Assembly: GCA_964036045.1 (NCBI GenBank)
Contig: OZ038379.1
Location: 26,226,001-26,290,000, forward strand
DNA length: 64,000 bases
Direction of reading: 5' to 3'
DNA from: Eutreptiella sp. 'Long Island Sound 2002'
Lineage: Eukaryota > Protista > Euglenida
Under the pieces are notes generated by a model. That model had not been told where the DNA came from, ran no database searches, and was given only the letters and a program-made list of their open reading frames with translations. Shown here piece by piece: positions 1-33,159 of the stretch. The position numbers and the translations under genes are program-made. Positions within the stretch are counted from its first letter, which is position 1; every line of letters starts with the position of its first letter.

Positions 1-212
1 TTGGGGCTGACTATGACACACTGCCCCCCATCTGTTTCACGGGTAAGGGTTCGGAGGGTTGGCCCCATACCCCTTAGGCGTTCCTTCACCCTGGTGACAT
101 CTCTGTCTATCTGTGGGACGGCCTGCATGTGTCCGCGGAGGACATCCCTTAGGAGGTAGTTGCCGGAGTTGAGCGCCTTCAGCAGCTCTACTACCACCGT
201 CACCCACATTCG

Positions 213-9320: not shown

Positions 9321-9347
9321 CAAAAGCAAGTGAAATTTTGTGTCCTC

Positions 9348-10060: not shown

Positions 10061-10135
10061 GGTACCAAAAGGTGAGGTTCCGTTTGGGCTGGAGTACTAG
10101 TGGGTAGGAATGGGGCTCATTCTTTGGGAGGATAG

Positions 10136-10284
10136 GTAAGGCCCATCAACGCAAAACAAGATACTGCCATCCGGTTGGGTTTGAGGCTGTACAAGTATAG
10201 GCGTCACCAACATTATCAATGATGCTTCTACCCCCAAAGTAGTCACTTTGTTTTTTCCCAACTAATGTTTTTTCTTGCTCTCAG
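10136..10284 (+). other. Putative 5'-UTR spliceosomal intron of the RepHel gene
   Basis: Donor AG/GTAAGG at 10136, branch-like ACTAAT at 10261, pyrimidine tract and CAG acceptor at 10284 (alternative at 10287). Confidence 0.55.
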
Positions 10285-10302
10285 CAGTTGGATGTGGAGT
10301 AT

Positions 10303-10327
10303 AGGTGTACTCTTAACGGAGTTACCT
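10303..10327 (+). promoter_or_regulatory. Conserved hairpin element upstream of the RepHel ATG
   Basis: AGGTGTACTCTTAACGGAGTTACCT; 14 nt between its ...TACC and the ATG at 10341. Confidence 0.8.
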
Positions 10328-13300: not shown

Positions 13301-13427
13301 ATACCTACGGGATCTGTACGAGGAGTGCAACATGGTGCATCAATGCTACCCCGACAAGTGTTTCAATATTGGTCGTGGGCGTGTATGCACCAAGTGCAAG
13401 TCAGGTTATCCCTTTAGTGTGCCGTAG
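10341..13427 (+). CDS. Helitron RepHel, 5' part (SQ-rich repeat, Cys motifs, Rep motifs 1-2); ends at an in-frame TAG
   Basis: 1028-aa ORF with DLFITLTMND-x-W (Helitron Rep motif 1) and RFEYQERGRVHLHGVVW (HUH motif 2, ~13197-13205). The frame continues into the next ORF. Confidence 0.9.
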   Translation: MSNRWEHELQQCLDTDIDFPVAEFIKLHSKIPPPTIRRRHAQLRATLMKRLQKRAALGIQASTVASLNTPESQAAKGSCGGKRNTAESQADKGKNNTAESQAAKGSCGGQKNTSESQADKGKKNTAESQAAKGSAGGKKNTAESQAAKGSSGGKKNTSESQADKGKKNTAESQAAKGSAGGKKNTAESQAAKGSCGGKKNISESQADKGKKNTAESQAIKGKKNTAESQAAKGSFGGINNTPESQRNKGIVGGHGNTPEKQHIKASGRRHCGVVRTVSRELFRVNASSPSNISLKSVREYWLDGLDTLYSPLFDALCYRCGQLLWGPIGGGHKFTVPRNTDEIRTQTLFGVHPTDLVTSGIFAFRNEMFANYLKYKNAPFPVPPRSPARSTSRFVVYDTPVWHSATRMYACHVCSKYSAKYDPINYGYTLDGDIHYNIPSKIADLTEYQKRQIALGALYSNTLKHVDLRHKQWHHAIGTVGVGRKPSQHYNALYGFMTMKEDILRDYQKPKDSKQSNRQMNQALLLLKKIHPFYSRFLAHYETLYRYLENAATTMGTLTQRSYEDKYGKRLEYHLQDEYVAWAVECDAPRNIIPDFAPHSDKVGFLHRTPFQGAGGNVTTAAQSLANDTYLHFNDPKLEPCVWPDLYPGGVGGYTVGCGIGCAAYYRSRYLAFDSRWRRDRWWSFFQVSKEMKNQLIWNQQNFKAQRADRAEDITAAHLRSARSSTGPKPAPKKSTSQSPHTSSECPQGSQCTQPSQSSQSATQSTQHPPSSSQYAATSTTPPSTQATRQGKKPRACYQDGVNSMNHNLEREGTDKGTAELNPYYRYGTYVPSKLVGTRSYWASRHLDLTAMSRELGKADLFITLTMNDNWADLQAAVQKGCRAGAVWPGEYPTNTGPNKPIQDGHDMEACVAFHKRVEIFKREFLAIGKNGPFGKVRDYWFRFEYQERGRVHLHGVVWCEANSIPDDVVCATMPRESDGFDPKFTAYLRDLYEECNMVHQCYPDKCFNIGRGRVCTKCKSGYPFSVP
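10542..11123 (+). repeat. Coding minisatellite: 14 units of 36 or 48 nt (NTAESQADKGKK / NTAESQAAKGSxGGKK)
   Basis: Read from the translation; the frame is preserved throughout. Confidence 0.92.
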
Positions 13428-16400
13428 GAGAGAGAAGAATTGGATGACAGTGGAGTCCGCTTGCTTTATCGCAGATATGAAGCCGAAGATGCATGTGTTG
13501 TTCCACACAATCGCCGATTGTTGGTTCGACTCCAGTGCCACAATAATGTGCAACGGATAACATCTTTGGGTTGGGAATTATATCTCGCCAAATATCTCAC
13601 AAAGCCAGCAAAGTCATTGACCGTGCCCATCACCATCTCGCCCGATGCAAGCGATGTGGAGCGTTTGCTCAAGTTGCGTTCATTGGGACGCATGGAGAAC
13701 GGCATGATGCTCTTAGGAATCCATCAATGTCGAGGTAGCCGAGAGGTGGTATGGATTCCTACAGATCCATGGCCTAAACTAGGACGGCTCAAGCGTCGAA
13801 AGCATCTCCCAGACGAAGATACGTCCACAGACGTTTGGTATTTGGATCGCTATGACCACTATTTGGAACGCCCCATTGCTGCCATACCCATCAAGTACCC
13901 CGACTACTATCGCTATTATCGCCGAACACAACGTGAACCCGGAGACTCCACGGCTATAGCAAGCAATCCAGCAGAGGACTTTGCATATGATTCTCCTTCT
14001 AGCGATTCCGATGATGCAGTGAGCGGAGATCGTTTTCAAGCCAACGTACGCCCCGATGAGGGCAATAAACCATATTGGTGGCCATCACCACCAGAAAAGT
14101 TGGAGAAGACATTCACGGACGAGGTGGGAAAAAAGTGGATTCTGCGAAGGCGAACTGCGATCCCAAGGTGGAACTTTTACGTCCCGTATGGAGAAGATGC
14201 AGAATTGTATTTCTTGCAAAAGATATTATTGTCACAGCCGTTAACAAAAGCAGACCACGAGCGGAAATTCCTTTCATCCAACAATGTCACTGAAACATAC
14301 ATGGAGGAGTGTATTCATCGAGGATTGTTTCGTGGTTATGAGGAAGAGGCAAGAGAAACTTTAAACAATGCCCAAGCACGTGGCTATTCCGTTGAGCGTT
14401 TGCGACTTCTTGCACAAGTTCTTATGGCCGAAGAGATCATAGACTCCACCTTCCTCAATACCTACATGTCCGATTTAGATGAGCTTGAAAAGCACCGGTT
14501 TGGAGAAGATGAGCCAGCAATGGCCGAGGAAGCTGAACTGGATCCCCAATTGGCGGAGGAGTTAAGGGCATTCATGGATGCTGACGACACGCGTGCAGCA
14601 GAGGCACTTGTGAATGCTTTGAACCAAGGGCAACGCCGGGTATTTGACATTTTTATTGCACATTTTCAACGGCAACCTCTTGAGAATGGTCCGGATATTT
14701 CCCCGCATTGCCGCACATCAAGTGGAAGTAGTGTTGCGCAATTGTGTGCTGTTCTCACAGGGGTTGCGGGAACCGGCAAGTCTTATGTCGTTCGCTTGCT
14801 AATTGCCAAGTTAAGAGCGCTTGGTTTCAGCATCCTAGTTTGTGGTTCTAGTGGGGTAGCCGCCCTAAATGTTGGAGGACGCACAATCCACAGCCTGTTC
14901 TCATTATCTTTGGACTTGGAGTGGCAAATAAAGGAAGGCACAACCTTGTGGTGGATGATTCGAACTGCCGATGTGATTATTGTCGATGAGTTCTCCCTCT
15001 TATCACACAAGCTCCTTCACACGCTCCATGATGTGCTACACAAGGTACGCCGCGACAAGCGCAATCCTTTTGGTGGCATTACAGTGCTCCTCGTAGGTGA
15101 TCCATTGCAACTACCCGCTGTTGATTTGGATATCTTTGACAGTGCACTCTTTCGAAACCATTTTGTTCCGTTTGTGCTGACGGACGTAATGCGCCAAGAC
15201 GATGCACATTTCATTAATTTGCTTAATCGTGTGCGGATTGGAGAGGAGAGTGACGAGGACCACTTAATTCCGCAGCAACGCATAGCGCTAAATTCCGATG
15301 TGTCACTACAAGACTTGGAGGATGCCCCCATGTTGGTTGGCCGTAGAAATGCTATGAACCGATGGAATGAACATTTCATGGCTCAATTGGGGTCAAGCAT
15401 TGTTACGTTCGATGCTAGCTACGTTGATATGGGTGGTGCCCCTACCAATCAAGCAATGTGCGACTATATCAATTCTCGCAATCGTCGTGTGCTGCCTCAG
15501 CAAGTGTGTGTCGCAGCGGGCATGAGGGCACGACTTATTCGCAATGTGTCCATCGAAAATCGACTCGTTAACTCGACACTTGTTGTGATCAAAAGATGGT
15601 CGAATGATGTCATTGTGGTAAGCCCGGTGGGGCACGCAAGGGAGTACCCCATCTGCCGTTTCCAGCAAATAATTCCGGTGTACGGCCCGTCCGTGCAAGT
15701 CAAAATAATCCAATTCCCTATGCTTCCCGGATACTCATGTACCGTGCACGGTACGCAGGGCTGCTCTTACGACCGCGTATGGGTGGACATGGCAGCTTTC
15801 TTTGCCGCAGCACACGCATATGTTGCTTTATCACGCGCACGTTCACTTCAAGGCCTATTCATCCTCAATTACCGTCGTGACGCTTTCCTTGTTGATCCGT
15901 ATTACGTGCAATTATGGGATTGGTTCGTGGCCACAAACGTGTTGTCTCCCAAACCACCCAGCCAAATCCCTCCTTATCCACGAAGAACATTTACAACATC
16001 ACTCATAATTGGAATTATGTGTGTCCATCGTGCTTGGAGTGTCGTAAGTCAACTCCCACAGCGGTTAGATGCTCGGATATTGAAGGTCAACATGCTCCAC
16101 ATTATCCAATATGTGTCATTTCCATACTGGTCGTATATTGAGAGACAATTGCGTGGAGACAAGCTGTCTTTGGACATTGATGATCTAAACGAGGATGGAA
16201 CGGAGCAAATCCGCAAACAAGGACGACCGGTTGGTGCTACAGGGCAACCGGCACAAGGCTTCAAACTATTGGACGCGTGTAATAACCCACGAGTGTTTGC
16301 GGCCCAAGACTTGGCTCAAATGTCGGTTGTGCAATTGCGGACATTGTGTGCTGCACATAAGCTATCAACTTCTGGAACCAAAGCCCAGTTTCAAGAACGC

Positions 16401-17924
16401 ATCCTACAAAAGCAAAACCACATTCAACCTCCATCATCTACACCAGCGCCTACACATTCACAAGGACCTGTACGACTGGTGCCGTCATCCATCAATGATT
16501 TCCCCCATTTGCAGCCACGACTTAATTACTTTGGAGAGGATTTTTGGCCACAAGAAAGAAGCGATACCACGGAGAACAATGTGCACTTATTGGAGAGTGC
16601 ATGGTTGTCTTGCGCAGCAGTGCAATGCTTACTAGAGGTCTTGTTGCCACAGGGCAATTCCTCGGTTAAGCCGGTCATCCAAGATGTGACATTGGCAGTA
16701 ATAATGCAACATCCTCCGACGTCGCGGGTTGTGTATACTCTGGGAGATGCCCTACCCGTACTACTCACCTCGCAGCACTCCACCGTTGGAGTTCACTACG
16801 TGTTGGTCACGGACATTTCCATTGTAGACAAGACCTTGGTTGTCCACGATCCTAAAGATAACGCATCTACCTGTGGCGCATGGTTCCGGGCAATTATGAG
16901 TAAAATGGGATGGTCTCTTACATGGCATCATTATGGAACTCAACCCGATTCCGATACATGTGGCTTCCGAGTCGTCATGCTCGCCATGCAATGGTGTCAG
17001 ACCAATCGACTCACCGGGCAACTGCCACGGTGGTTCTCGACGTATTGTGCAAGCGTTCTCCAGCTTTTTGCCGACGATACGAGGAGCTTGCGTTCTACGG
17101 TGAATACGTTTCAAGATTGGGCATATGAAGATGCTTTGAGAGAGTATGATGAACCAGTGGACTGGGCAATGACGGAGGGTGGGCCGCTTCCTACCGTCAC
17201 CAACAGCGACATGGAAGCTGCAATTCGCAACCCTCAATCCAATTCAGCAAGTGGTCCGTCTTCAACGTCCAAAGCGCCGCAGCCTCCGCATCCGTCAACC
17301 CGTAGGAAGAGTGGGACAAGTAAAGGGACTACGGGGGCAAACCCACAAACCACACCGGCACAGACCACTCCTACAAGAAAAATTCCAAAGTCAAAAAAGA
17401 CAAATATGCCTCCACGTACCCGAACTTGTGAGCCACCACCCTACCAATCGCACCGTCAACCACATCCCAAGAGTGGACACGAGGCCGACCAAAGTTCTCG
17501 CAAACATTCCTCAAAGAAGCGGTCATCCAACTCCGAGTCCGGGCCAAGGTCCAAGAAGAGTCGACCAGAGGACCACGAGCAGTCAAATACTAGACGCAAG
17601 AGATCCACTTCGAGCCGTCCTTCCGAATCAACAAGCCAAGAGCCGCCAACAGCAAAACAACGGCAAGAAAAAGCTCCGGTAAATCATGCTACACTATCCG
17701 AGAACGAGATCAAGAAGTGGTTAATCCTTATCACGGACGAAAATTTAAGTCGACGAAAACGCCGCGAGCATGCTTTGCACTTCTTGGGAGCCGCAGATAG
17801 TACCCTGGTAACATTACAGTACCGCACTCTCAGTCTCCAACTGCATCCCGACAAAAACCCGTCGGATGCACTAGCAAAGCAACGATTCCAAGTTCTTGGG
17901 TGTGCAAGAGACATGTTCCGTTAG
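13428..17924 (+). CDS. Helitron RepHel, 3' part: Rep motif 3, PIF1 helicase, SAP, Ulp1/C48-like protease, C-terminal J domain (10341-17924 = 2527 codons if fused)
   Basis: YLAKYLTK (catalytic Tyr motif, ~13581), GVAGTGKS, IIVDEFSLL, FGGITVLLVGDPLQLPAV, LTDVMRQ, TVHGTQG, YVALSRARSLQGL. SAP-like MSVVQLRTLCAAHKLSTSGTKAQFQERIL. Protease-like HYVLV...D...QPDSDTCG. J-domain YRTLSLQLHPDKNP...AKQRFQVL. Confidence 0.9.
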   Translation, partial: EREELDDSGVRLLYRRYEAEDACVVPHNRRLLVRLQCHNNVQRITSLGWELYLAKYLTKPAKSLTVPITISPDASDVERLLKLRSLGRMENGMMLLGIHQCRGSREVVWIPTDPWPKLGRLKRRKHLPDEDTSTDVWYLDRYDHYLERPIAAIPIKYPDYYRYYRRTQREPGDSTAIASNPAEDFAYDSPSSDSDDAVSGDRFQANVRPDEGNKPYWWPSPPEKLEKTFTDEVGKKWILRRRTAIPRWNFYVPYGEDAELYFLQKILLSQPLTKADHERKFLSSNNVTETYMEECIHRGLFRGYEEEARETLNNAQARGYSVERLRLLAQVLMAEEIIDSTFLNTYMSDLDELEKHRFGEDEPAMAEEAELDPQLAEELRAFMDADDTRAAEALVNALNQGQRRVFDIFIAHFQRQPLENGPDISPHCRTSSGSSVAQLCAVLTGVAGTGKSYVVRLLIAKLRALGFSILVCGSSGVAALNVGGRTIHSLFSLSLDLEWQIKEGTTLWWMIRTADVIIVDEFSLLSHKLLHTLHDVLHKVRRDKRNPFGGITVLLVGDPLQLPAVDLDIFDSALFRNHFVPFVLTDVMRQDDAHFINLLNRVRIGEESDEDHLIPQQRIALNSDVSLQDLEDAPMLVGRRNAMNRWNEHFMAQLGSSIVTFDASYVDMGGAPTNQAMCDYINSRNRRVLPQQVCVAAGMRARLIRNVSIENRLVNSTLVVIKRWSNDVIVVSPVGHAREYPICRFQQIIPVYGPSVQVKIIQFPMLPGYSCTVHGTQGCSYDRVWVDMAAFFAAAHAYVALSRARSLQGLFILNYRRDAFLVDPYYVQLWDWFVATNVLSPKPPSQIPPYPRRTFTTSLIIGIMCVHRAWSVVSQLPQRLDARILKVNMLHIIQYVSFPYWSYIERQLRGDKLSLDIDDLNEDGTEQIRKQGRPVGATGQPAQGFKLLDACNNPRVFAAQDLAQMSVVQLRTLCAAHKLSTSGTKAQFQERILQKQNHIQPPSSTPAPTHSQGPVRLVPSSINDFPHLQPRLNYFGEDFWPQERSDTTENNVHLLESAWLSCAAVQCLLEVLLPQGNSSVKPVIQDVTLAVIMQHPPTSRVVYTLGDALPVLLTSQHSTVGVHYVLVTDISIVDKTLVVHDPKDNASTCGAWFRAIMSKMGWSLTWHHYGTQPDSDTCGFRVVMLAMQWCQTNRLTGQLPRWFSTYCASVLQLFADDTRSLRSTVNTFQDWAYEDALREYDEPVDWAMTEGGPLPTVTNSDMEAAIRNPQSNSASGPSSTSKAPQPPHPSTRRKSGTSKGTTGANPQTTPAQTTPTRKIPKSKKTNMPPRTRTCEPPPYQSHRQPHPKSGHEADQSSRKHSSKKRSSNSESGPRSKKSRPEDHEQSNTRRKRSTSSRPSESTSQEPPTAKQRQEKAPVNHATLSENEIKKWLILITDENLSRRKRREHALHFLGAADSTLVTLQYRTLSLQLHPDKNPSDALAKQRFQVLGCARDMFR

Positions 17925-18158: not shown

Positions 18159-19260
18159 GTACAATTAGTGCACGACGTAGGTTGCAGGTGTACTCTTAGC
18201 GGAGTTACCTTCACTTATTAGTACACAACGCAGGATGCAGGTGTACTCTTAACGGAGTTACCTTCTCTTAGTTGCAACAGAACTACGAGTCAAGGTGTCC
18301 TTTTCACGGAGTTCCCTTCATTTACAAGCAGCAAGCGTACAAAGCACTCATCCACGTTGTGCGCGCACCTTCAATTGTTGCCAACGGTTTGTTAGAATCC
18401 TCTCACACAAGGGGTGATGCATCTTCTAAAACATACGGAAAACATTTTGGTAGCAAAGCGGGTGTACTCTTAACGGAGTTACCTTCAATTATTTTCATCC
18501 ATTTGCCAATCCACAAAAGCAGGGTACAATTAGTGCACGACATACAATGCAGGTGTACTCTTAACGGAGTTACCTTCACTTATCAACAAACGACGTAAGA
18601 TGCAGGTGTACTCTTAACGGAGTTACCTTCTCTTATTTGCAACAAAAGTACAAGTCAAGGTGTACTCTGCACGGAGTTACCTTCATTTACTTGCAATAAC
18701 CGTCAAAGCAGTCATCCACGTTGTGCGCGCGCCTTCTATTGTTGATAACGGTTTGTTACAATACCCTCAAACAAAGGGAGATCCATTTTCTAAAAAAAAC
18801 GGTGAACATTTCGGTAGCAAGGTGGGTGTACTCTAAACGGGGTTACCTCCCCTTATTTTCGTCTATTTCCAACCATCTCATTTGCCAATCCATACAAGCA
18901 GGGTACAATTAGTGCAAGAGGTAGGATGCAGGTGTACTCTTAACGGAGTTACCTTCACTTATAAGTACACGACGTACAATGCACGTGTACTCTTAACGGA
19001 GCTACCTTCACTTACTTGCAGCAAGAGCACTCGTTTCCATCACTTACGTTTATGTTTCAAACTTGCGTGCCTTGCATCATGATGCATCATGACTCGGATG
19101 GAAGCCGCCCTAAAATTTTGTCCGTGGTGTGCAAATGACAAAAAGGGACAGGGTTGCCATTCATGCACCACTACTCCGAGGCTATGTTCTAGTACGACTA
19201 TCTAAATCTCACACATTGCCGTCCCCTCTTTCTAGGTGTATTCTTAACGGAATTACCTGC
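18159..19260 (+). repeat. Intergenic hairpin array (11 copies; 53/54-nt sub-period inside a ~365-379-nt higher-order repeat)
   Basis: Motif starts at 18186, 18239, 18293, 18460, 18551, 18604, 18658, 18824, 18930, 18983 and 19234. Confidence 0.92.
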
Positions 19261-19269
19261 ACTTCAATA

Positions 19270-20091
19270 ATGGACAATGCGCCCACCTGCCCTGTGTGCC
19301 AAGCCGAGCTCATCCCTAAGGTTAGCGGCTCAGCGACTCCAAATTTTGACCGAGCTTTCCTGGCATGCCCAAATGACAAGCCGGACAACCGTCATCAAGG
19401 GGCTTTCAAGTGGACGGAGCCGCCAAAACATGTCCCACATGACTGGCCGTCATGTTTGTGCGGAGTGCCGGCGCAGATCAAAAAATGGGGCACAACTTAC
19501 TCATTCAAGTGCTGGGATGAGTCCCCTTCGGGATGTAAGTTCTCACGCGGCGCAACCACAGTTCCCGACCTCCAGCATCGTGATTGTGTTGCATGCGGTT
19601 GGGTGTACACGCCAGAAAGCACAACTGAATGTGTGCCCGTATCATCTCCATCAGCATCGACATCTCCCATGGATTCAACACCACCGCGCAAAATTCCACG
19701 GCCAAATCCCGCAACACCAACTCAAAGTTATATCCGCCCTCAAGACTTGAAACACAAGGCCGCCATACCAATTACAATGTACGAAACCGAGGATTCGTAC
19801 ATCATACTCGCTCGACATGGAGTCACAGGTACAGCGGATGCCAATGCCGTTACACTGAACTTCGAGAGTCCAAGGGGTATACCTCCCAAAGCTATCGTCC
19901 ACGTGAACGAATTGCAATTGGCACATGAATTGCCAGCACCAGGGACAACCAATGAGGGCACGGAGCCTCACAGTTATCACCGCACCATTCAATTTCCAAA
20001 AGCAGTTCATCCTAAGCCGACTAAGGAAAGCAAAGCAACTTATATTGTACTTACGTTCAAGAAGGAAAGCGGCAAGCTTGTGTCCTTCTAA
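19270..20091 (+). CDS. GRF-type zinc-finger protein with C-terminal HSP20/alpha-crystallin-like domain, copy 1 (273 aa from ATG 19270)
   Basis: CPVC...S...NFDRAFLACP...FKW (zf-GRF pattern), second CLCG...FKC...C finger and CVAC motif. C-terminal MYETEDSYII...SYHRTIQFPKAVH...YIVLTFKK resembles sHSP beta strands. The ATG follows the hairpin by 12 nt. Confidence 0.7.
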   Translation: MDNAPTCPVCQAELIPKVSGSATPNFDRAFLACPNDKPDNRHQGAFKWTEPPKHVPHDWPSCLCGVPAQIKKWGTTYSFKCWDESPSGCKFSRGATTVPDLQHRDCVACGWVYTPESTTECVPVSSPSASTSPMDSTPPRKIPRPNPATPTQSYIRPQDLKHKAAIPITMYETEDSYIILARHGVTGTADANAVTLNFESPRGIPPKAIVHVNELQLAHELPAPGTTNEGTEPHSYHRTIQFPKAVHPKPTKESKATYIVLTFKKESGKLVSF

Positions 20092-20374
20092 TGTGCTTCC
20101 TTGATGCAATTGAATGCCTAATTCAATACATGTGTGCGACATGTCGTGCCACACTATATTATTCGTGCACTGCCGCCGCAATTGTGCAGTCGAATATGCA
20201 TTTCTTCCATACTTGAATGGTCCAAGAGCCTCCAACTTCATCAGATGATGATGCGTGTAGCGCTTCTCAATAGGCGAACATCAACATTCACGTGCTTCGT
20301 CCCTTTGCACATTTCACACAACAGTTCGGCCGCATGAGAGGTTCCGTTGCAGCTAGTTTTATCTTTGAATTTGT

Positions 20375-22398
20375 CTTCATTTACAAGCAGCAAGCGTACA
20401 AAGCACTCATCCACGTTGTGCTCGCACCTTCAATTGTTGCAAACGGTTTGTTAGAATCCTCTCACACAAAGGGTGATGCATCTTCTAAAACATACGGAAA
20501 ACATTTTGGTAGCAAAGCGGGTGTACTCTTAACGGAGTTACCTTCAATTATTTTCATCCATTTGCCAATCCATAAGAGCAGGGTACAATTAGTGCACGAC
20601 ATACAATGCAGGTGTACTCTTAACGGAGTTACCTTCACTTATCATTACATGACGTAAGATGCAGGTGTACTCTTAACGGAGTTACCTTCTCTTATTTGCA
20701 ACAAAAGTACAAGTCAAGGTGTACTCTGCACGGAGTTACCTTCATTTACTTGCAACAACCGTCAAAGCAGTCATCCACGTTGTGCGCGCGCCTTCTATTG
20801 TTGCGAACGGTTTGTTACAATACCCTCAAACAAAGGGTGATCCATTTTCTAAAAAAAACGGTGAACATTTCGGTAGCAAAGTGGGTGTACTCTAAACGGG
20901 GTTACTTCCGCTTATTTTCGTCTATTTCCAACCATCTCATTTGCCAATCCATACAAGCAGAGTACAATTAGTGCAAGACGTAGGATGCAGGTGTACTCTT
21001 AACGGAGTTACATTGCACGTGTACTCTTAACGGAGCTACCTTCACTTACTTGCAGCAATAGCACTCGTTTCCATCACTTACGTTTATGTTTCAAACTTGC
21101 GTGCCTTGCATCATGATGCATCATGACTCGCATGGAGGCGGCCCTAAAATTTTGTGCGTGGTGTTCAAATGACAAAAAGGGACAGGGTTGCCATTCATGC
21201 ACCACTACTCCGAGGCTATGTTCTAGTACGACTATCTAAATCTCACACATTGCCATCCCCTCTTTCTAGGTGTATTCTTAACGGAATTACCTGCACTTCA
21301 ATAATGGACAATGCGCCCACCTGCCCTGTGTGCCAAGCCGAGCTCATCCCTAAGGTTAGCGGCTCAGCGACTCCAAATTTTGACCGAGCTTTCCTGGCAT
21401 GCCCAAATGACAAGCCGGACAACCGTCATCAAGGGGCTTTCAAGTGGACGGAGCCGCCAAAACATGTCCCACATGACTGGCCGTCATGTTTGTGCGGAGT
21501 GCCGGCGCAGATCAAAAAATGGGGCACAACTTACTCATTCAAGTGCTGGGATGAGTCCCCTTCGGGATGTAAGTTCTCACGCGGCGCAACCACAATTCCG
21601 GACCTCCAGCATCGTGATTGTGTTGCATGCGGTTGGGTGTACACGCCAGAAAGCACAACTGAATGTGTGCCCGTATCATCTCCATTAGCATCGACATCTC
21701 CCATGGATTCAACACCACCGCGCAAAATTCCACGGCCAAATCCCGCAACACCAACTCAAAGTTATATCCGCCCTCAAGACTTGAAACACAAGGCCGCCAT
21801 ACCAATTACAATGTACGAAACCGAGGATTCGTACATCATACTCGCTCGACATGGAGTCACAGGTACAGCGGATGCCAATGCCGTTACATTGAATTTCAAG
21901 AGTCCAAGGGGTATACCTCCCAAAGCTATCGTCCACGTGAACGAATTGCAATTGGCACATGAATTGCTAACACCAGGGACAACCAATGAGGGCACGGAGC
22001 CTCACAGTTATCACCGCACCATTCAATTTCCAAAAGCAGTTCATCCTAAGCCGACTAAGGAAAGCAAAGCAACTTATATTGTACTTACGTTCAAGAAGGA
22101 AAGCGGCAAGCTTGTGTCCTTCTAATGTGCTTCCTTGATGCAATTGAATGCCTAATTCAATACATGTGTGCGACATGTCGTGCCACACTATATTATTCGT
22201 GCACTGCCGCCGCAATTGTGCAGTCGAATATGCATTTCTGCCATACTTCAATGGTCCAAGAGCCTCCAACTTCATCAGATGATGATGCGTGTAGCGCTTC
22301 TCAATAGGCGAACATCAACATTCACGTGCTTCGTCCCTTTGCACATTCACACAACAGTTCGGCCGCATGAGAGGTTCCGTTGCAGCTAGTTGTATCTT
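20375..22398 (+). repeat. Second copy of a ~2.05-kb tandem duplication (copy 1 = 18316-20366) carrying hairpin array plus the GRF gene
   Basis: Near-identical sequence at offset 2059, shifting to 2034 after a 25-nt deletion near 21009. Hairpins at 20519, 20610, 20663, 20717, 20883, 20989, 21017 and 21268. Confidence 0.95.
21304..22125 (+). CDS. GRF zinc-finger/HSP20-like protein, copy 2 (intact)
   Basis: Same as 19270-20091 apart from 5 amino-acid differences seen in the translations (V>I, S>L, E>K, PA>LT). Confidence 0.7.
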   Translation: MDNAPTCPVCQAELIPKVSGSATPNFDRAFLACPNDKPDNRHQGAFKWTEPPKHVPHDWPSCLCGVPAQIKKWGTTYSFKCWDESPSGCKFSRGATTIPDLQHRDCVACGWVYTPESTTECVPVSSPLASTSPMDSTPPRKIPRPNPATPTQSYIRPQDLKHKAAIPITMYETEDSYIILARHGVTGTADANAVTLNFKSPRGIPPKAIVHVNELQLAHELLTPGTTNEGTEPHSYHRTIQFPKAVHPKPTKESKATYIVLTFKKESGKLVSF

Positions 22399-22570
22399 TT
22401 GCCACGCACATTGTGGTTCCATGCACTTACATGAATGATTTGCAAATGAAAGGGTGAAATTGGATTTGCTATGATTTTACCACAGTTAAGAGCTAAAGGG
22501 TTCCATATTCCGATTAATTAGAATCCGCAACACCGATCCGCAACAACAGCTCGAATATTTCAATTAACAC

Positions 22571-23045
22571 ACCACATCCATCCACGAGAGTGGATGTGGT
22601 GGGCGAAGCAGGCACCCGCTAGAGGGCTAGTAGCTTCACAGTGTCATAAGTGGACCTATCTCGTAGCGGAGAATTGCCTTCCGCGGGCCATCGCCACAAC
22701 GGCCGTCGAAATATGTCGACAGGGTTTCGGTGAACGCACGAAAGGAGGAACGCCGGCCGCCTCCCCCTCTACTTCAGAGGGCCGGCTTTTCTTCACACTG
22801 GGCTCCGAAACGACGGACCCAGCGCTCTGTTGGTCAGTGGGCCCGCACACAGAGCGCTCGGTACGTCGTTTCGGGGCCCTGCGCTCTGTTTGTCAGTGGC
22901 CTTGTTCGCAAGTGACAACAGAAAAATTCCTCCATGGGCGCATGGAGGGGGCCATTACCCACAACGAGGGCCCGGTGAGACTCGTTGTATGGGAGTTATT
23001 GTCCATGCGGCGATGGCAACAGGGTAAGTCCGCTCGCTACGGAAG
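22571..23045 (+). ncRNA. Unassigned highly structured GC-rich segment (structured RNA or single-strand DNA origin)
   Basis: At least 7 consecutive stems, including ACCACATCCA/TGGATGTGGT (22571-22600) and a ~29-bp interrupted stem (22800-22879). No credible ORF. Strand assumed from G-U wobbles and gene orientation. Confidence 0.5.
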
Positions 23046-23169
23046 AAACACCAAAATTTGTTGCCATTGCTTTTTGGATAATAACTAATGTTTACTTGAC
23101 TACCTTGCAAAAAAAGTACATACAAACAGTCGTACACAACGTTGTGCGCGTGCCTCGAGAAAACTTACA

Positions 23170-23823
23170 GTAACATCTCGTTTACAAAGCAGTTGTACTC
23201 GTAACGGGGTTACCTTCACTTATTTTTCATATCATTTCAGACCATCCATGGCAAAGAAAATAGATATACAAACACAATCACTCAAAAAAATGGTAATCCA
23301 TTTTCCAAATCGTAAAGTGAACATTGCGTTATGACAGCAGGTGTACTCTTAACGGAGTTACCTTCAATAACTTTCCATGTCATTTCAAACCGTTCCTCAT
23401 GAACCACGTTGTGCTTCCATCTTTTCCCTCACTTCATTCATGCTCGACTTCCATGGCACCCGTCAAGGTGTACCCTTAACGGGGTTACCTTCAACAACAA
23501 GGGTGACGTTCCATTTAATGAAGCAAACACTCGTATCACTTGCCACCCGCATTTTTATTTGCTTGCACAGGGGGCATGATTCACTGATGATTCAACGACA
23601 CTTCCTCCATTATCTAAAGCAAAAACTGGAATCATTTGCTACTTCCGAAAGCCTGCAACTTCGCCGCATGATGTTGTATGTAGAGTCAACGTTCACTTGC
23701 ATTGACCAATTGCTATAAAAATACGATGAGACATTTCACACATGAATTCCACCACATCAAAATTGGCGTGTCAAATGTTCGTATCATTTGCCACGCACAG
23801 GTGTACTCTTAACGGAGTTACCT
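23170..23823 (+). repeat. Third, more diverged hairpin cluster upstream of the helicase gene
   Basis: Motifs at 23191, 23339, 23466 and 23799. Flanks such as ATCCATTTTC...GTGAACATT are homologous to the 18.2-19.0-kb higher-order repeat. Confidence 0.85.
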
Positions 23824-23836
23824 TCTCTATTACAAA

Positions 23837-26800
23837 ATGCATCCTGCAAATTCGTTCACATTGGCCAAGGTTCAGTCACTACAAGAAGCAGCAATGACGG
23901 CTACGCTTATTATGGCCAAGGAAAACACAGCAAAGCAAGAATTGACCTTCACGGGCGAGTTCAAAGGTTCGTCAACATGGATCACGACATGGGGCCGCTT
24001 CGAATTCGCCGAAGATGACCACATCCGTCTACATCCAGAACCACATTGCCAAGGCCAAGTGCCTTACGAAGGAAAGATCACAACAACATCTGACGATGTT
24101 GCACATGTGACGGTGGACAACGTGTGGGGCATCCCAACGGGGTTATACAGTTTGGAATACGTCCCGGACATGATGCCTGCCGAGTGGGTCAAAGGTGCGC
24201 TAGAATTTTCACCTGAGCCTTAGCATACATTGCAAGTGTTGGCGTCAGGAAGCAATAACAAGCCACTCAACCCCATATCCGAAGACACCATCCAAGCCGT
24301 TGCAGCAGATCTCAAATTGGAACCGTCCCAATGTTTCGCCCTACAGACCGCCATGCGTTCAAAGGTGTGGGCATCCCAACTCCTCATATGCTCCCCAACA
24401 ATGCTCTCCAGCATATCAATTCCTGTTCGTTTCGCGTATTACAACCATTACTATACCCGGTTAAATAATCAAGGCGTCCCCGAATTCCATGCCATTCTCA
24501 ATCTCCTACTCATTCCCTATGTGTTGCAGGTGACTGCCATAATGGGGCCCGCCGGTTGCGGTAAATCCCATGTTTCCTTGGCCATCATGCAAGCGCGTTT
24601 CCTTGCAGCGCAACGCGTGTTGGTCACAGGTCCTACGAACACTTTGGTGGACAATTTGTGCGATGCCTGGGCGACAACCAGCGGTCTCACCGGTCCAGCA
24701 ATCGTTCGATTGTACTCCAAGATTCAACACGATTCCGGAAAAGCAAATGAACTGTACTGTGCCCATGCACTCGCCGTAAGATACCAATTGACAGTGAAGG
24801 AAGTGTTGCACAACGCAACCTTCGTATTCGCAACTAACGCCCTTGCCTTGTCACCCTCTCTACAGGGCGATTTTCACCACCACATTGTTGATGAAGCCGG
24901 ACGCACCAATATCCCTATGGGCATAGCGCTCACAGCATGTGCAAAAAACATCACCTTCATTGGTGATTCAAATCAGTTACATCCCCACACAAACCTTGAA
25001 AAGCATTACGCAAATGAGCTTGAATTAACAACAGAGGACATGTCACGCCTCATCGATGACAGCAAAATAAGCATCTTGCATATGTGTGCAGCAGGTTTGG
25101 TTCCACATGCATGCATCATAGAGCAACATAGGATGAACAAGCGCTTGACGGATTTCATCAATACATTTTTTTGCGGACTTATGGTCGGTTCGGGAGGAGG
25201 ACAAGAGCCCTCTTACACACTGCCAAACAAATCATGCATCAAACTTATCGACACATCAGCCAATGCTGCATTCGTCCCAGTCGATGAACTTTTCAATCTT
25301 ACCTGTTCCGCATTCCAACCTCGTGTTGCCACTTCCGCGTTTTCGAGTATTGCAGCTCGCCACGTGAATGACGTCTTGCATTACGCACAGAACGATTGGC
25401 CAAAAGGCAGTGTTGCTATCATTAGCAATCACTACGAGCAAAATCGCTTGAACAAAGCGCTATTTTCTTCCCATGAGTCCGTGTCCGCCATTGACACTTT
25501 AGGTAGGTTCCAGGGAAGTCAAGCCGATGTCGTCATACTAACCTTGGCTTCCATTCATCCAGGTTTCTTTACCGAAACCACACGACAGTATGTCGCTAGT
25601 TCGCGCGCGCGTCAAGCATTGATCATTATTGGTGAGATCGCGAAATGGAAAGCGCATCAACAGATTCGCCCACTATTTGAGGCCTTGGAGGCAATGCAAC
25701 AAAACGCTTCATTGCCCACCACCCGCGTACACACACTTGCGGCCTTGCCCAAATTCGTGGACAACGCATGTTCCAACGATTGGGTCGTTTGTCGATGGTC
25801 TCCCATGAACGATTGCTGTATGCACGGAACCCTCTATCATGACACCATCATGTCGTCCATTCAAGCATCCCTTCACAATCATTTCAATTCATACTTCACG
25901 GTGAAATTCGGACGCATCCTTCTGCCCGACTGTAGCTGGTTGTTTACCAATATATTGGCCTTTCCTGTACCCGATGTTCCACAATACCAGTCCCTTATTG
26001 ACAGCATGGATGCTGCAGTCTTTCACAATGTAGAATGTCGCCAACTATATGACTGGGAGAGGGAGATTCTACGGGAGATCCCACGAAACTTCCGCAAGAC
26101 TCTCACCCGTCAAAATAAGCGTTACACACTTACAGTACAGTTGGTCCAAGCTCTGTACCACAATTTCTTCACCAAATGCCGTTCCGCATTCCACCATAAT
26201 CTCCTCACTCATTTATACGGATTGCTTCCGCAGCATGGTACATGTGATCAAACCACCCACACCCATGGCTCAAACATCTCTTCCACCATTTGCACTTGGT
26301 GCCATGTGCTTCCAACACCATCACTGTCAAGCCAAATCACAGGCTACAATGCCCCACAAGTGCAGGCCGACCTCATTCACACCTTCATTACAGACGTGGC
26401 CGCAGATGTAACATACTTTGAGCCAACAAAGATTGCCGTGGGATGTCCTTTACAATTTTTCAAGATGGCAAGGGAATTTCTTCCGTTTACCAAATGGCAA
26501 ATGAACGATGATAAGGATCATCGAGGCTTCCCCGGTGGTGGCCGTAGTGTGCAAACAACCCCTCAAATTGCGAAGCTCTTTACACAACTTAACCTGCAAT
26601 CGGGTAATGCCATTTTTCGCAATGTTTTCAATGACACAACTGCAAGTGCAAAGCCTCACATCGATTCTGATTGTTTCCAACGCAATAGGACTTTCCTATG
26701 GCACTTTGGACCTCCTAGCTACCTACGCTGGGGAAATTCGAAGTACCCACTGGAACACGCTGCATTGTATGCTTTTGATGCTGCATGCACTCATTCCGTC

Positions 26801-26845
26801 CCGTTGATGGGTCGTTATAGTTTGTCTATTCGCTCGTGGAACTAA
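23837..26845 (+). CDS. UPF1/DNA2-type SF1 helicase fused to a C-terminal AlkB-like 2OG-Fe(II) oxygenase (1002 codons, one in-frame TAG at 24221-24223)
   Basis: ORFs 23837-24223 and 24230-26845 share one frame. Helicase motifs MGPAGCGKS, VLVTGPTNTLVDNL, IVDEAG, IGDSNQL, EQHRM, FQGSQAD, YVASSRARQAL. C-terminus RNVF...PHID...THSVP...RYSLSIR matches the AlkB N...HxD...H...RxSxxxR pattern. Confidence 0.8.
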
Positions 26846-26932
26846 GCGTCCATGGCATGCACGATGGTGTTGTTGTCCTCGCTTTGGTGGTCGCAGTGAA
26901 CCAACAAGCAACATATTATTGTCGGCTACATG

Positions 26933-27331
26933 CGGTGGTGGCCGTATTGTGCAAATAACCCCTCAAATGGCGAAGCTCTTTACACAACTTCACCTGCAGT
27001 CAGGTAATGCCTTTTTTCGCATTGTTTTCAATGACACAACTGCACGTGCGAAGCCTCACATCGATTTCGATTGTTTCCAACGCAATAGGACTTTCCTATG
27101 GCACTTTGGACCTCCTAGCTACCTACGCCGGGGAAATTCAAAGTACCCACTGAAACACGCTGCATTGTATGCTTTTGATGCTGCATGCACTCATTCCGTC
27201 CCGTTGATGGGTCGTTATAGTTTGTCTATTCGCTCGTGGAACTAAGCGTCCATGGCATGCACGATGGTGTTGTTGTCCTCGCTTTGGTGGTGACAGTGAA
27301 CCAACAAGCAACATATATTGTCGGCTACATG
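26933..27331 (+). pseudogene. 400-bp tandem duplicate of the AlkB-domain 3' end and 3' flank (copy 1 = 26533-26932)
   Basis: ORF 26919-27245 repeats GGGR...RYSLSIRSWN with a few substitutions; offset is 400 nt. Confidence 0.9.
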
Positions 27332-28251
27332 ACAAATCATATGGAGCACATTATATCTCGGGTTGCACGACCCATCAACACTGAGTCAATGCATGACACA
27401 ATCAGAGAATTTTTGCATGCCGCCGTGCGGTGCCTCTTTTCGCTTGCGTGCTACTCAGTGGCCTTTGCAATATTGTTTTCTACATTTCCCAACAATGGTG
27501 TCCCTTGACCGGCATAGCAACCATCAATTCAATCAAACCAATCCTTTGGCGACATCATTGCCAAATTCCATCACTCACTCACTCACATATATGTGCCATA
27601 GTATGCTGCAGTAAGCTTCCGGGAGCAAGTGCACTCTTATCAATGTTATCTTCCCTTCAAAATGACCTCACACATTCGATCGTGACAATGACCAGCACAC
27701 CCCTCCTAACTTGCAAGCAATCTTGACTTCCATCATACATGACAATTTGTTCCGATAAACAATCCGTCCAGGGGTGATCAATTGTTTGATTCATCACTAT
27801 ATAATCAATGCCCCGCACCAAAAAAACGTTGCACCATTACCCAATACACAAGTACGATGCTTTTCCACCCATCAAGCCCAAAGCTTTCGCCACAATTGGT
27901 CATCGACGCCGCTTTCATTGCCATGATGCGACATGATTCCACAAACAATGGTACTATGCACCATTCAACAAATTCCCAAAAGAATCATAAAGGGTAGGCG
28001 TACAAATCCGTCACTATAACCTCCATGATGCGATCCAAGTCAACATACCAATTTCACATGCAAGTGAAGTCTCCTGCACGTCACGTCAAAACAACACCCT
28101 AGCCACCGTTTCCATGCGGTACACTCCAAGTTTTACAAAGGGTCCATTGACCAAATTGTTTCACGGCCTATTGCACCATCCATACACGTCAGCCAAGCCC
28201 ATCTTCCAGCCACAACAGGAATTTCAAGCAACCACTTCCTTTCATCAGTCC

Positions 28252-28453
28252 CAGGATGCTCAAATTAGGGCGTGAAGTCATCAACGCCTTCACTCCATTG
28301 CATTTCGCATTCATTTGTCTTGCTAGGTGTATTCTTAACGGAATTATCATCTCAGGATGCTCAAATTAGGGCGTGAAGTCATCAACGCCTTCACTCCATT
28401 GCATTTCGCATTCATTCGTCTTCCTAGGTGTATTCTTAACGGAATTACCGTCA
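28252..28453 (+). repeat. 101-bp tandem duplication containing the hairpin (28325, 28426) upstream of the F-box gene
   Basis: CAGGATGCTCAAATTAGGG... begins at both 28252 and 28353. Confidence 0.92.
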
Positions 28454-28462
28454 CTACAAAAT

Positions 28463-29707
28463 ATGGACAATACTTCAACCTACGGCGAGCCAAGCAACTA
28501 TCACCCACAATGTATGCCCTGCGTCAAGAACACACAAAATCGTCAAATGAAACGCAATATCAAGATTGCCATGGTCACGACGCCAACATCATTGCGAGAT
28601 TTCCCGAAGGATCTCATGTTGCTAATCGCAGAGTACGCACAGCAAATAACCTCACTCAGCAAGTTGTGCAAAAGCATGTGGATAATGCTCCATGGTTCGC
28701 GCATCATGAACACCGACGCATGGAATTGGGTGACGAAGGATTTCAAACGTATGATTAATGTGCGTCACCTCATGGCTCACTTCAACGACAATACGTTCGC
28801 CTCACTCATTGCGGCAAAGGAATATATTGACAACCTCAACTCCGGTTTCTTCGTCGGTTTGTGCGATCTAATGTTGTGGAGCGATATATCCGGACCATAT
28901 GCAAGCACTGCAATACGGGCAATTAACACAACATTGCGCTCCTCATCACGTACACTGCACACCCTAAATTTATCCTGCTACATGCCGTCCTTGTGCGCCT
29001 CGGTCATGGCAGAGAACCTATTGAATTGCACATCTCTCACAACTTTGGCTCTGAGTTTGCGCATCGCAAAAAATGAAGACGGGTTGGTAACTTTTATGGA
29101 CGATAACACATCTAATCGCCTCTTGAAAGACGTTTTCTGTAAAGGCATGCATATGCTTAATTTCCTCCACCTCGATCTCTCCTCTGGGTCCATCACAAAT
29201 AGTGGTGCATGCGCGTTGGCAAATGAATTGTGCAACGCGCAAACACTTACCCACATGCATCTGGACCTAGGTTACAACCATATAGGTCCACTTGGGGTGG
29301 CCTCTTTATTTCGTTTGATGGGACAATATAAAAAGCTGCAAAGTTTCTATTTGAACGTCTGTGCAAATCAGAAGTGGGGGACCCAAAATGAATTGGCCAA
29401 ACCCTTTTACATCCGAGAACTTGCAACCACTTTGTGTTCCATTCAACTGGATTTCCAAGACATTGGTCTTGTTGACCATAGTGTGATTGACCTCGTCAAC
29501 ACCTTGGTTAACAAATGGAATCCGCAAGTGTTGCAACAAAGCAACACATCCGCACTGCTTTAGCTAAATCTTCTCTACAATTATAATATTGATATGGCGG
29601 GGGTTTGTGCATTGCAAGTGCTAGTAGACCACTTTGCCGTTGACGTGCATACAACAATTTCATGTGATGCATTCGATTCACCCCATTTGTACAGCGACGA
29701 CGACTAG
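28463..29707 (+). CDS. F-box + RI-like LRR protein (TAG at 29561-29563; frame and LRR pattern continue to TAG 29705-29707)
   Basis: F-box-like LRDFPKDLMLLIAEY...LSKLCKSMW. LRRs FLHLDLSSGSITNSGACAL and MHLDLGYNHIGPLGVASL, and after the TAG LNLLYNYNIDMAGVCAL. The ATG is 13 nt after the hairpin. Confidence 0.75.
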
Positions 29708-29823
29708 GTCCTTCGTCGGCAATTCTATGCAATTTAAAGCCAGTTCCCTTCAATTCCAAACTTTTGTAGTAGCAAAGTGTTCCAACCAGTTCAGGTTGCC
29801 ATCCGTGGGAGTTCCCAATGCAA

Positions 29824-29900
29824 TGGTGTACTGCTAACGGAATTACCATCACCTTCATGCCATGTCTAAACCTTGGGAGGAAGGGTTACAACTGTTTCTT
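29824..29900 (+). other. Terminal hairpin followed by a diverged second RepHel start (MSKPWEEGLQLFL), truncated
   Basis: TGGTGTACTGCTAACGGAATTACC + ATCACCTTCATGCCATGTCTAA resembles the left-array tail TTCACATTCACGCCATGTCTAA. The peptide aligns with RepHel MSNRWEHELQQCL. Confidence 0.6.
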
Positions 29901-30110
29901 GCAATGATTACCACGAGACTCGCAAGTAATTCCTTCACGTGTTTTGCCAACTGTGCTTCGTTCCTCCAACACTGCCACGCGGTTACGGTAGATTGCGGTT
30001 TGATGGACATACGTACGGACGGGCTCTTTCTGAGCGGATATAAATTCCCATTAGCCTTCCCCTCCACCTTGTGCACAACTCCCACATAAAGAACCCGCGT
30101 GTCTTTTAGG

Positions 30111-30666: not shown

Positions 30667-31713
30667 CTAATTGTCTCGATGCATTAGAAAGTCATCATTC
30701 CAGGCTCCGTTAATGCCCTGCACAGCGAGGTCTGGTGGGAGAATCCAGGAGCTGTAACTGCCGTGTTGCCAGTAGGCGTGCTTTCTAAGCCATGTCCCTA
30801 TTTTTGCAACTATGACACACGGGCTCTCAGGCATTTTGCGTGTAACGGGGTGCAGGCATTTTCCCGTCGCGGACACTGCATGGGGAGATGTTTGATAGGC
30901 CCTTTGTACCGCCTTGTGTAACGCTCTTATTGCCGATTCCCACTTGAAGCCGCTTAGTTGAGCCACTTGCATCCAAGTTGAAGCACTCATCAGTTGCCCC
31001 AACCACGATGTTGTCCAACACAAACCGCTTTTCAAGACCCCAGTGAGGATGGAAGGGAGGTATGCTTGGTAGCTGTTACCGGGTGTCATCAGTGGTGGTG
31101 GTGGGCACAGATGTAATCCCATCGGGAGGTTAGTGCCGCTGGTTCCACAAATGCGCACCCTGTGCCGTTCGGACCCAGAACGATTACTACCCCGACTGCC
31201 TTCAGAAACCCCTAAGCAACACCTCCTCGTGCAATGGTCGCAATCAGGTGCAATGCAGTCACACTCCACCTGTCGACCACAGGCCTTGTGGAGGATGCTA
31301 CGAAGCAAGTTGACCAATCTAGCACATTTTTCAGCTGGTGCATGTGTTGCAACCGGAATGTTGTCTCTAAACTGACACAGTGTGACTTTGCCGTATGGCC
31401 CATCCCACAGCGGGAACCCCTCAGTAGAAACAGCCAGGGTACCTAGTTGCCTGAACATGTGCCTATGCACGTACCCTCTCCACATTGAATGCAAGTCTGC
31501 ACCATGGGTTGAAAACGGTCCGCCCATCGGGATGCAATTTGTTCGCATCCATACCGAACCTACAGACCAGCACACATTGCTCCTCTTTAGATCATGCCTG
31601 ACCAGAGTGTTTAGATTGTCCTGATGAATGTACATGAAGCTGTGCGCTGTTACTTTGCCAGCTCTATCGAGTTTCCTATGTGCATGATGGATTGACCACA
31701 TGACATCTTGCAT
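30667..31713 (-). pseudogene. Penelope-like reverse transcriptase (C-terminal part)
   Basis: CIPMGGPFS (GxPMG motif) followed by FRDN at the YxDD position. Confidence 0.7.
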
Positions 31714-33159
31714 GCGCCACCGCTGTTTTTTACTAACCAGTCAGAAGCTTGTTGCATCTCTTCGTCCTCGTTCTCTGAACTGATGTTATTGAACTATTCC
31801 TTACAGTCTAGCTCTGTGAGAGTGGTAAGGTTTTGTTTTGCACACCACGTAAACCAATTTGCAACGTCAGATACGGACAGGCGGAGAAACGCAGCAGGCA
31901 GGTCACTGATTGGGTGGCTCAGGAAGCGGGTGAAGGCTCGGGCAGCAACTCGGAGTTGAGACCGCTGGACGACAGGGCTTGGGCTGGCCGCTATCGGCCG
32001 CCAAAGCCATCATTTCCTTGCTCATAGGCTCCTCGCCTTCTGTATGATATATAGTCTGCACAACTTTGCTTGTTTGTTACGGGACCACCTGAGTTTCTCA
32101 AACAGATCATTGACTGTTTTCGCGAAATCGTTGGCTGAGCTAGCAACTATTTTGTAGCCACCCTGGACCAGGAGTTTTGCCGCCTCCTCCGATACCCACC
32201 GTCGGCAAAAACCCCATAGTTGTCCTGCACCTTTGTGTAGTATACGAAGGTAAAAATCTTGGGACAACTGCTCAGCAATGCGGCACACCCGACACATCGT
32301 ATGCCCTAAGTTCGGAAAAAGTGAGGGAGGTAACAGTTTGTCTAAATCCGGCACCTGTCCCTAGACTTGTCTAGCAAAAGCAGTGACAGCTTTCTTGGCT
32401 GCCTCTCGAGCCAGTTTGCTAGCGATGGGGCTAGGTGGTCTCCGAGACGAAGGACATGTCCCATCTCGTCTGTGATCGTGACAGGAATGAGTGCAATGTG
32501 CCCTCCGGTGTCTACCAGGTTCCCATGGGCCCTGGCTGTGCCAATATGTGCAGAGCAGGTACATGGTGGGCGCTCAATACTCCAGTCCATGCTTGTTGCG
32601 AATTTGCTGAAAACGGTTTGAACAGAATGGGGGCTCGCGTGAACTACCCTCGTGATCTTCTTTACTGCCTGTTTCTCGCACACTTGCTTGTTTGTTGTGC
32701 GCAAAACTCTGTGCATGACGCGCAAAACGGCACACTTCTGTGGAGGAGTGCAGCTAAGGATCGTAACCGATGCCCCTTGAAACACGGGTCTGTCAAGCGA
32801 GCTGAAAAGCTCTGAGTTCTGCCTGCATGCTTTTCTGTCGCGCAAAATCTCTGTCCCATTGTGCCTGTTTCATTTCTTTAATGAGATTCAGGACATGCTG
32901 ATTAAGCCAGTGGTTCTGGCTGACGGTACCTTGGGTCGGGATCCTAGGGGTAACGTCGTTGCAGGCCCAGCGTCTCAGTTTGTACCACCATGCCCTTTGA
33001 CGAATTCCTGTCCACCAGACGTCGGATGTGTACTCTAAAACTGCAATACCCCACCCTGCTTGGCTTGTTTTCTGCATCCATGTGTGCGGGGACGTGTCGT
33101 CTGTACTTGCAGCAGCGTCGATCCTGTGCTTGCGTAGCCTCTGTACCGGAGGGATACAC

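Follow-up and report, generated by a model that had tools for sequence, protein, structure and literature searches.

The window, i.e. the whole 64,000-nt stretch of Eutreptiella sp. 'Long Island Sound 2002' DNA that was analysed, shows microsatellites and a GT-AG intron as eukaryotic features. Of 17 listed sequencing runs, 14 contain it, among them estuary metagenomes and runs filed under two coded organism labels. A Helitron spans about 9.3 to 30.0 kb of it, with ends bracketed by motif arrays (9444-29847), and was recognized by Pfam matches to both a Rep (HUH) and a Pif1 helicase. The relatives of the Rep fall in clusters of 202 and 268 members with 79% identity, thus indicating a multi-copy element. 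Inside it, just 5' of a cargo gene, sits a GC-rich island.

10341-13427, + strand: Helitron Rep (PF14214, 3e-25; PF23343, weak)
13440-17924, + strand: Pif1 helicase of the host Helitron (PF05970, 3e-28)
22570-23045, + strand: GC-rich structured island, non-coding (59% GC; flanks 39% and 35%)
23837-26845, + strand: cargo gene, an Upf1/SMUBP2-like SF1 helicase fused to an AlkB-fold domain (Pfam AAA_11/AAA_12; model for the AlkB fold)

The Pif1 ORF also bears SAP and C-terminal DnaJ-like domains and is separated from Rep by a stop in this copy, relatives being longer (1312 aa). Tandem duplications are found at 18316-22399 (2 kb, including two GRF zinc-finger ORFs), 26533-27331 (400 bp) and 28244-28447 (103 bp), and an LRR-like ORF occupies 28373-29563 (PF13516 below cut-off). 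Two related decayed ORF sets without Pfam match, which we take to be possible retroelement remnants, lie at 30670-31740 and 35478-37480 (- strand).

The left repeat array (9340-10060) and the right end (29750-29990) have a common unit around a 23-nt hairpin motif. Thirty copies of this motif within 3 mismatches occur at 9444-29847 (e.g. 10304-10326 and 23800-23822), all on the + strand and, in the 64-kb window, inside the Helitron only. Across 21 distinct rows, 94% of cells pair, 3 of the 9 pairs display double changes and one G-U is invariant. A copy starts 35-37 nt before the ATG of all five ORFs, usually directly behind an AG, and in the sister family the cargo ORF P0002 continues through the motif. 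Its depth in run X7 is about 180,000 versus about 1,200 for the island. The motif is a candidate acceptor, promoter or translation element and perhaps equals the island in interest.

The cargo had been called a helicase-AlkB gene in the initial annotation, a designation that holds for both parts, the helicase by Pfam (AAA_11/AAA_12) and the AlkB fold by a model match. Indeed, an alignment-based model of the C-terminal domain (16 sequences, pLDDT 89) matches ALKBH2/5/7 and AlkB, whereas a sequence search of Atlas and PDB gave no AlkB match for this domain and a single-sequence AlphaFold prediction reached a pLDDT of 35 only. The fusion is an intact, multi-family Helitron cargo with relatives in clusters of 47, 62 and 13 members (45% and 36% identity), and no viral relatives of the protein were found; the gene of this copy is decayed by a stop at 24221-23. 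Neither a helicase-AlkB cargo in a Helitron nor such a fusion was met in the literature searched, which included few subscription papers. The gene contains a GT-AG intron at 24365-24529 (165 nt, in-frame, stop-free), absent in three other aligned cargo families, and the Helitron thus uses the spliceosome.

The folding energy of the island is better than that of 100 out of 100 shuffled controls on each strand (501-nt region, z -5.79 on the + strand and -7.25 on the - strand), and the island is one of only six among 160 windows of 200 nt across the 64 kb with z < -4. This signal is uneven, being strong at 22800-79 (z -9.1) and 22570-640 (z -5.1), lower at 22880-23045 (z -1.8, 2/100 shuffles as good) and at chance in the middle third, 22603-799 (z -1.1, 11/100 shuffles as good). 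The raw z-score stems largely from two near-perfect hairpins; once these two long hairpins are constrained, the remainder has a z of -2.1 on the + strand (4/60) and -4.0 on the - strand (0/60). The - strand folds equally well or better, which counts against a + strand RNA.

The short-range stems initially described are all present: the 10-bp stem 22571-80/22591-600, which extends to 12 bp with one G-U, GCCGGC 22752-57/22781-86 with CCCTCT/AGAGGG and then TTTT (22787-90), the 16-bp and 10-bp stems at 22800-22879 with their direct repeat (22821-44 vs 22880-903), the CTTG/CAAG stem at 22901-12, and the 8-bp stems at 22929-48 and 22961-88. The long-range closure proposed between CGTAGCG and CGCTACG exists in its letters but only has a probability of 0.04-0.30 on the + strand. 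Another helix, missing from that stem list and called here helix A, dominates the long-range pairing (22687-95/23009-17, p 0.94-0.97 in folds that begin no later than 22640 and end no later than 23060). Once the fold reaches 23075, helix A ties in this copy with a helix 23010-22/23058-70 (-228.3 vs -228.1 kcal/mol). As to the GGGCCC palindromes pointed out in two loops, the first one is not conserved, as C22842A accounts for 616 of a depth of 1041 in run X7, which weakens the idea of a kissing loop. The features of the island and its 3' border are as follows.

22570-22601, + strand: 5' hairpin H1, 12 bp or a 7+5 bp register with a GAGA loop (fold; 22570-640 z -5.1)
22605-22637, + strand: hairpin H2 (GAAGC/GCTTC), holding CTAG at 22619-22 and 22627-30 (fold, sequence)
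22649-22668, + strand: 5' sides of two outer helices that compete or cross (22649-55 with 23028-34; 22662-68 with 23035-41)
22687-22698, + strand: 5' strand of helix A, closing the core domain (p 0.95; C22692G and C22697G in P0233 with partner changes)
22701-22794, + strand: inner multi-branch part, with a GGCC closure and hairpins 22705-20, 22725-43 and 22744-94 (fold)
22800-22879, + strand: 30-bp hairpin hiding a small hairpin, 22804-17 (arms differ at 3/31 letters, one private to this copy)
22885-22922, + strand: hairpin e, with a variable bulge (22891) and an apical CTTG-TTCG-CAAG stem (double change; kept in the second family)
22929-22993, + strand: hairpins f (22929-48) and g (22958-93), with a variable loop (fold, other copies)
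23006-23017, + strand: 3' strand of helix A (G23007H and G23012T in P0233, P0237, P0277 and the P0238 cluster)
23024-23029, + strand: predicted 5' splice donor GTAAGT, 6 nt behind helix A (sequence)
23058-23070, + strand: downstream strand pairing with 23010-22, rival of helix A (this copy; lost in older copies)
23083-23089, + strand: branch-point-like AACTAAT (sequence)

Variants in other copies were read from translations and from the best 40 of 225 differences in contigs of four runs. A search with a 164-aa ORF of the island gave 10 translations among 40 candidates; with cluster members added, 22 translations were available, one of them from the window itself. The island is present in tens of copies and at least two families in one genome, the letters at 22657, 22859 and 23072 and an extra A at 22922 being private to this copy. 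The frame of the 164-aa ORF is not kept, as most copies have a 1-nt deletion at 22922, four ORFs have a stop at codon 106, and frameshifts separate the versions of the two families. Since frames differ among copies, the island is non-coding; the ORF, devoid of Pfam match, was rejected as a gene.

The second high-depth family aligns from 22881 to about 23020 with about 85% identity in the core, its flanks being unaligned at 80%. Its depth is 1323 vs about 700-1200 in X7 and 30 vs 39 in X5, and it is also seen in X11 but not in X4; copy ratios suggest that it is linked to a sister Helitron family. It is matched by the P0238 cluster (five members), homologous to the island from 22730 on, in which both the direct repeat and the 3' arm of the 30-bp hairpin are missing. 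For this reason, the hairpin, also absent at the loose ends of X5 and X11, is likely a lineage-specific inverted duplication of 22800-30 with a restart at 22881. The most striking feature of the initial annotation is thus probably the least meaningful one, missing as it is in the second family. Two other pairings were rejected on comparison of copies: 22939-46/23002-09 has a p of 0.00 and is broken in the second family, and the helix 23010/23070, considered as a conserved switch, is broken in older copies (G23012T and T23067C in P0233, P0237 and P0277). An X7 contig (record 30) runs from 23019 back to 22548, which suggests a tandem island in another copy.

In all, five double changes preserve pairing; for one of them the register is deduced, and for another the stop codon. 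The prediction of helix A (p 0.95) preceded any look at variants, and in P0233 two of its pairs are altered on both sides, which lie 310-320 nt apart (chance 0.008 for 16 randomly placed changes): at 22692/23012, C22692G with G23012T gives a G-U, and at 22697/23007, C22697G with G23007H pairs in 2 of 3 letter options. The two 3' changes recur in P0237, P0277 and the P0238 cluster, where the 5' partners are outside the visible part. In the apical stem of hairpin e, G22904A accompanies the codon-106 stop, most simply C22909T, in 4/4 ORFs, neither being found in 5/5 others; no other subfamily-specific change is visible between 22594 and 22911 in four copies, and both hit one pair (chance 0.0014). 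Finally, in the second family, U22804-A22817 reads G-C (X5, X11) and A22749-U22789 reads U-A, in the latter case with a register deduced across a 1-nt indel. The outer helices display only a one-sided G-U-keeping change (A23039G in P0233).

The 18 scored changes of the second family include 12 at unpaired positions, 3 keeping a + strand G-U and 3 with an unseen partner, none being a shown break; this score omits 22935-36 and their indel, where the hairpin is remodelled but kept. With 22935-36 included, 13 sites have a mean unpaired probability of 0.56 vs 0.35 (p 0.03; 7/140 shifts). The 40 pooled changes of young copies comprise 17 unpaired, 9 keeping, 12 breaking and 2 double ones, and are ascribed to random decay because 17/40 fits the 43% unpaired share of the model. 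In P0233, 7 apparent breaks among 16 scored changes count against a kept structure; on a reading of codon positions, 2 are real (22705, 22777), 4 have partners invisible in translation and 1 lies at a frameshift. The scoring of P0233 left out consensus alleles, one ambiguous codon, indels and changes past 23041. Altogether, there is moderate evidence for selection on the island structure.

The same double changes have to be weighed against a neutral origin, in which template switching in a single-stranded rolling-circle intermediate builds and homogenises inverted repeats without any selection. Indeed, templated copying in ssDNA can create double changes in hairpins without selection, and may have done so here. 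Such foldback DNA nevertheless leaves unexplained that the second family matches the core and not the flanks, that its changes avoid stems whereas those of young copies do not, and that some products are G-U pairs, which copying would not make; it is considered unlikely.

As for function, the island is tentatively read as a folded leader or non-coding first exon of the helicase-AlkB transcript, which is regarded as plausible without being probable. This idea was put forward by the initial annotation: what stands is a non-coding island with a predicted donor and the best-supported mechanism, whereas spliced RNA was not seen among sparse RNA contigs. These contigs (two metatranscriptomes and one guessed-RNA run, 3 of the 17 listed runs), to be read as presence only, fall in 14, 8 and 2 of 30 bins on 20400-26900 with a depth of 2-7, and none lies over 22608-23654, one X13 contig ending at 22607. 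The splice signals previously reported were found again, namely the GTAAGT donor at 23024 and ACTAAT, here AACTAAT, at 23083. A diverged contig (X7 loose end at 23019) retains GGTAAG, followed there by about 10 extra letters, and donor residues are compatible in 12/12 ORF tails, although Gly-Lys codons do not prove GT.

GGTAAG followed by AACTAAT within 130 nt occurs 5' of both Rep (10135/10260) and the cargo, accounting for 2 of the 3 AACTAAT in 64 kb. Before Rep, the donor and AACTAAT are followed by a pyrimidine tract and CAG, and 10135-10287 is likely a 5'-UTR intron. In contrast, the side following AACTAAT at 23083 is A-rich and not pyrimidine-rich, which counts against a leader. The putative exon 22570-23023 folded alone retains helix A at 0.98 and holds 7 ATGs. 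The leader reading thus draws on the donor behind helix A, the same signals before Rep, and the fold and ATGs of the exon.

Transcription would start in the AT-rich stretch before 22570, and helix A would close a multi-branch core of about 330 nt. The spliceosome could then use the GTAAG donor 6 nt behind helix A and splice the leader onto an AG-plus-hairpin acceptor upstream of ATG 23837. The fold and the 7 upstream ATGs may gate splicing or translation of the cargo, possibly with feedback by the RNA-helicase/AlkB product, and the 30-bp hairpin would be a later foldback added in one lineage. In this scheme, RNA rather than ssDNA as the active form, the + strand, the promoter, the splicing and the regulation are all putative.

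Another arrangement of the same signals is a stand-alone RNA of about 450 nt with its own promoter, ended at the donor by a spliceosomal cleavage limited to the first step and forming an RNP with the helicase-AlkB protein. The covarying helix closing just before the donor, the lack of double change in helices needing intron sequence and the weak 3' splice context are in line with it, as is the X7 contig 23019-to-22548, by which the unit can duplicate by itself. Such processing is known for fungal telomerase RNAs (PMC4299874). However, no Sm-site match on the + strand and no Pol III boxes were found, and a T5 run at 23071 occurs in this copy only. It is thus rather improbable that Helitrons of this lineage encode their own structured RNA without Rfam relative, freed by spliceosomal cleavage and associated with an Upf1-like helicase-AlkB protein. 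A free RNA would represent a new RNA class and, together with the helicase-AlkB protein, a ribonucleoprotein module within a rolling-circle DNA transposon.

The island could also act as ssDNA, as a second-strand priming site, a pause site or a relic right end (hairpin plus CTAG) bypassed in cargo capture. Indeed, the + strand is also the displaced strand, and the covarying 22901-12 stem is more probable with DNA parameters (0.52-0.93 in DNA folds vs 0.03 in the RNA ensemble). CTAG at 22619 and CTAG-T at 22627 lie behind H1, and the prevailing view of cargo capture invokes terminator bypass (PMC6431247). Near 22630, however, no depth drop follows the hairpin and CTAG, and no loose end is found there among those listed, 77 others being outside the list. 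For Helraiser, ordinary lagging-strand synthesis, with the displaced strand as template, has been proposed to yield the second strand, no free ssDNA circle being involved (PMC5876387). The alternative of an sso, initially put forward, gained no positive support: blastn against 72,556 plasmids and 50,697 phages gave no match to the island, RS_B is absent, and CS-6 occurs once, on the - strand, paired rather than looped. Pattern scans retrieved 2 metagenome and 5 viral loci, which are chance matches of the pattern alone; further ones, including prokaryote contigs, gave no island match, and a Sigma-70 promoter scan remained at chance level. An ssDNA signal, which also leaves the donor unexplained, is doubtful.

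Known RNA classes were searched as well. In the 64 kb, Rfam yields no family at gathering score for the island or elsewhere, only sub-threshold pre-miRNA hairpin matches, the best of which (31.5 bits vs a gathering score of 90) was dismissed as a generic hairpin match to a lineage-specific stem. Together with the double changes in other copies, this fits the initial view of a structured element outside known families. The statement that no hammerhead, HDV, group I/II or tRNA core can be matched also agrees with motif scans and Rfam. ARAGORN found no tRNA, and no exact hammerhead core (CUGANGA with GAAA and NUH) exists on either strand. A loose HDV-like descriptor gave 4 and 3 matches vs 0-4 in 10 shuffles. 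For group I/group II introns, S and D5 motifs are absent, with one stray R-like 6-mer, and the helix order of the island does not suit them in a manual comparison. Core motifs of RNase P/MRP, SRP, telomerase RNA, snoRNA and tRNA (CR-I/CR-V, SRP54 helix, telomeric template, C/D boxes, cloverleaf) are absent, and a U1-like reading of the - strand was rejected, its A-run linker not being conserved and Rfam giving no match. Although size and multi-branch layout fit, and the crossing of outer helices around a large inner loop is reminiscent of RNase P topology, a captured and diverged RNase P/MRP, SRP, group I/II, HDV-like, hammerhead or telomerase RNA is highly improbable and largely refuted by these absences.

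Compared to known systems, the island has partial likenesses only. Known Helitron cis-elements are short terminal hairpins. H1 followed by CTAG is similar to the terminal hairpin plus CTRR (PMC5876387), whereas the island is internal, has no depth drop behind and is 20 times larger; no large conserved internal RNA fold in a Helitron was met in the literature searched, which included few subscription papers.

In the sso of rolling-circle plasmids, as in the island, nested stems extend over several hundred nt within a rolling-circle element. The island differs by its eukaryotic nuclear element, the lack of sequence match and the lack of RS_B/CS-6 in a loop. R2 retroelements carry an HDV-like ribozyme. 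Hammerhead ribozymes are described in Penelope/Terminons/retrozymes (PMC6431247), and the island is comparable as a possible structured RNA in a mobile element, with one tandem arrangement. Unlike retroelement ribozymes, it has no catalytic cores, and its host is a rolling-circle DNA transposon without RT.

With spliceosome-cleaved fungal telomerase RNAs (PMC4299874), the island has in common a folded exon followed by a donor and a branch motif, and a weak 3' splice context, whereas it has no telomeric template or Sm match and a discrete RNA is putative here. Long-range pairing joining the ends of a 330-nt segment recalls euglenid non-conventional introns, for which PMC4770533 gives the rule of paired CAG(+4..6)/CTG(-8..-6) ends. 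No CAG/CTG end pair with at least 5 pairs was found in 22401-23800, and the island lies outside a coding exon.

Structured 5' leaders or first exons gating splicing or translation include fungal TPP-riboswitch introns and IRESs. The island is likewise folded, non-coding, located 5' of a gene and by a 5' splice site, with alternative helices, whereas it is devoid of Rfam match and known ligand motif, resides in a DNA transposon and has a putative regulatory role. If it is a leader, a DNA transposon would regulate a maintained full-length cargo gene via RNA structure.
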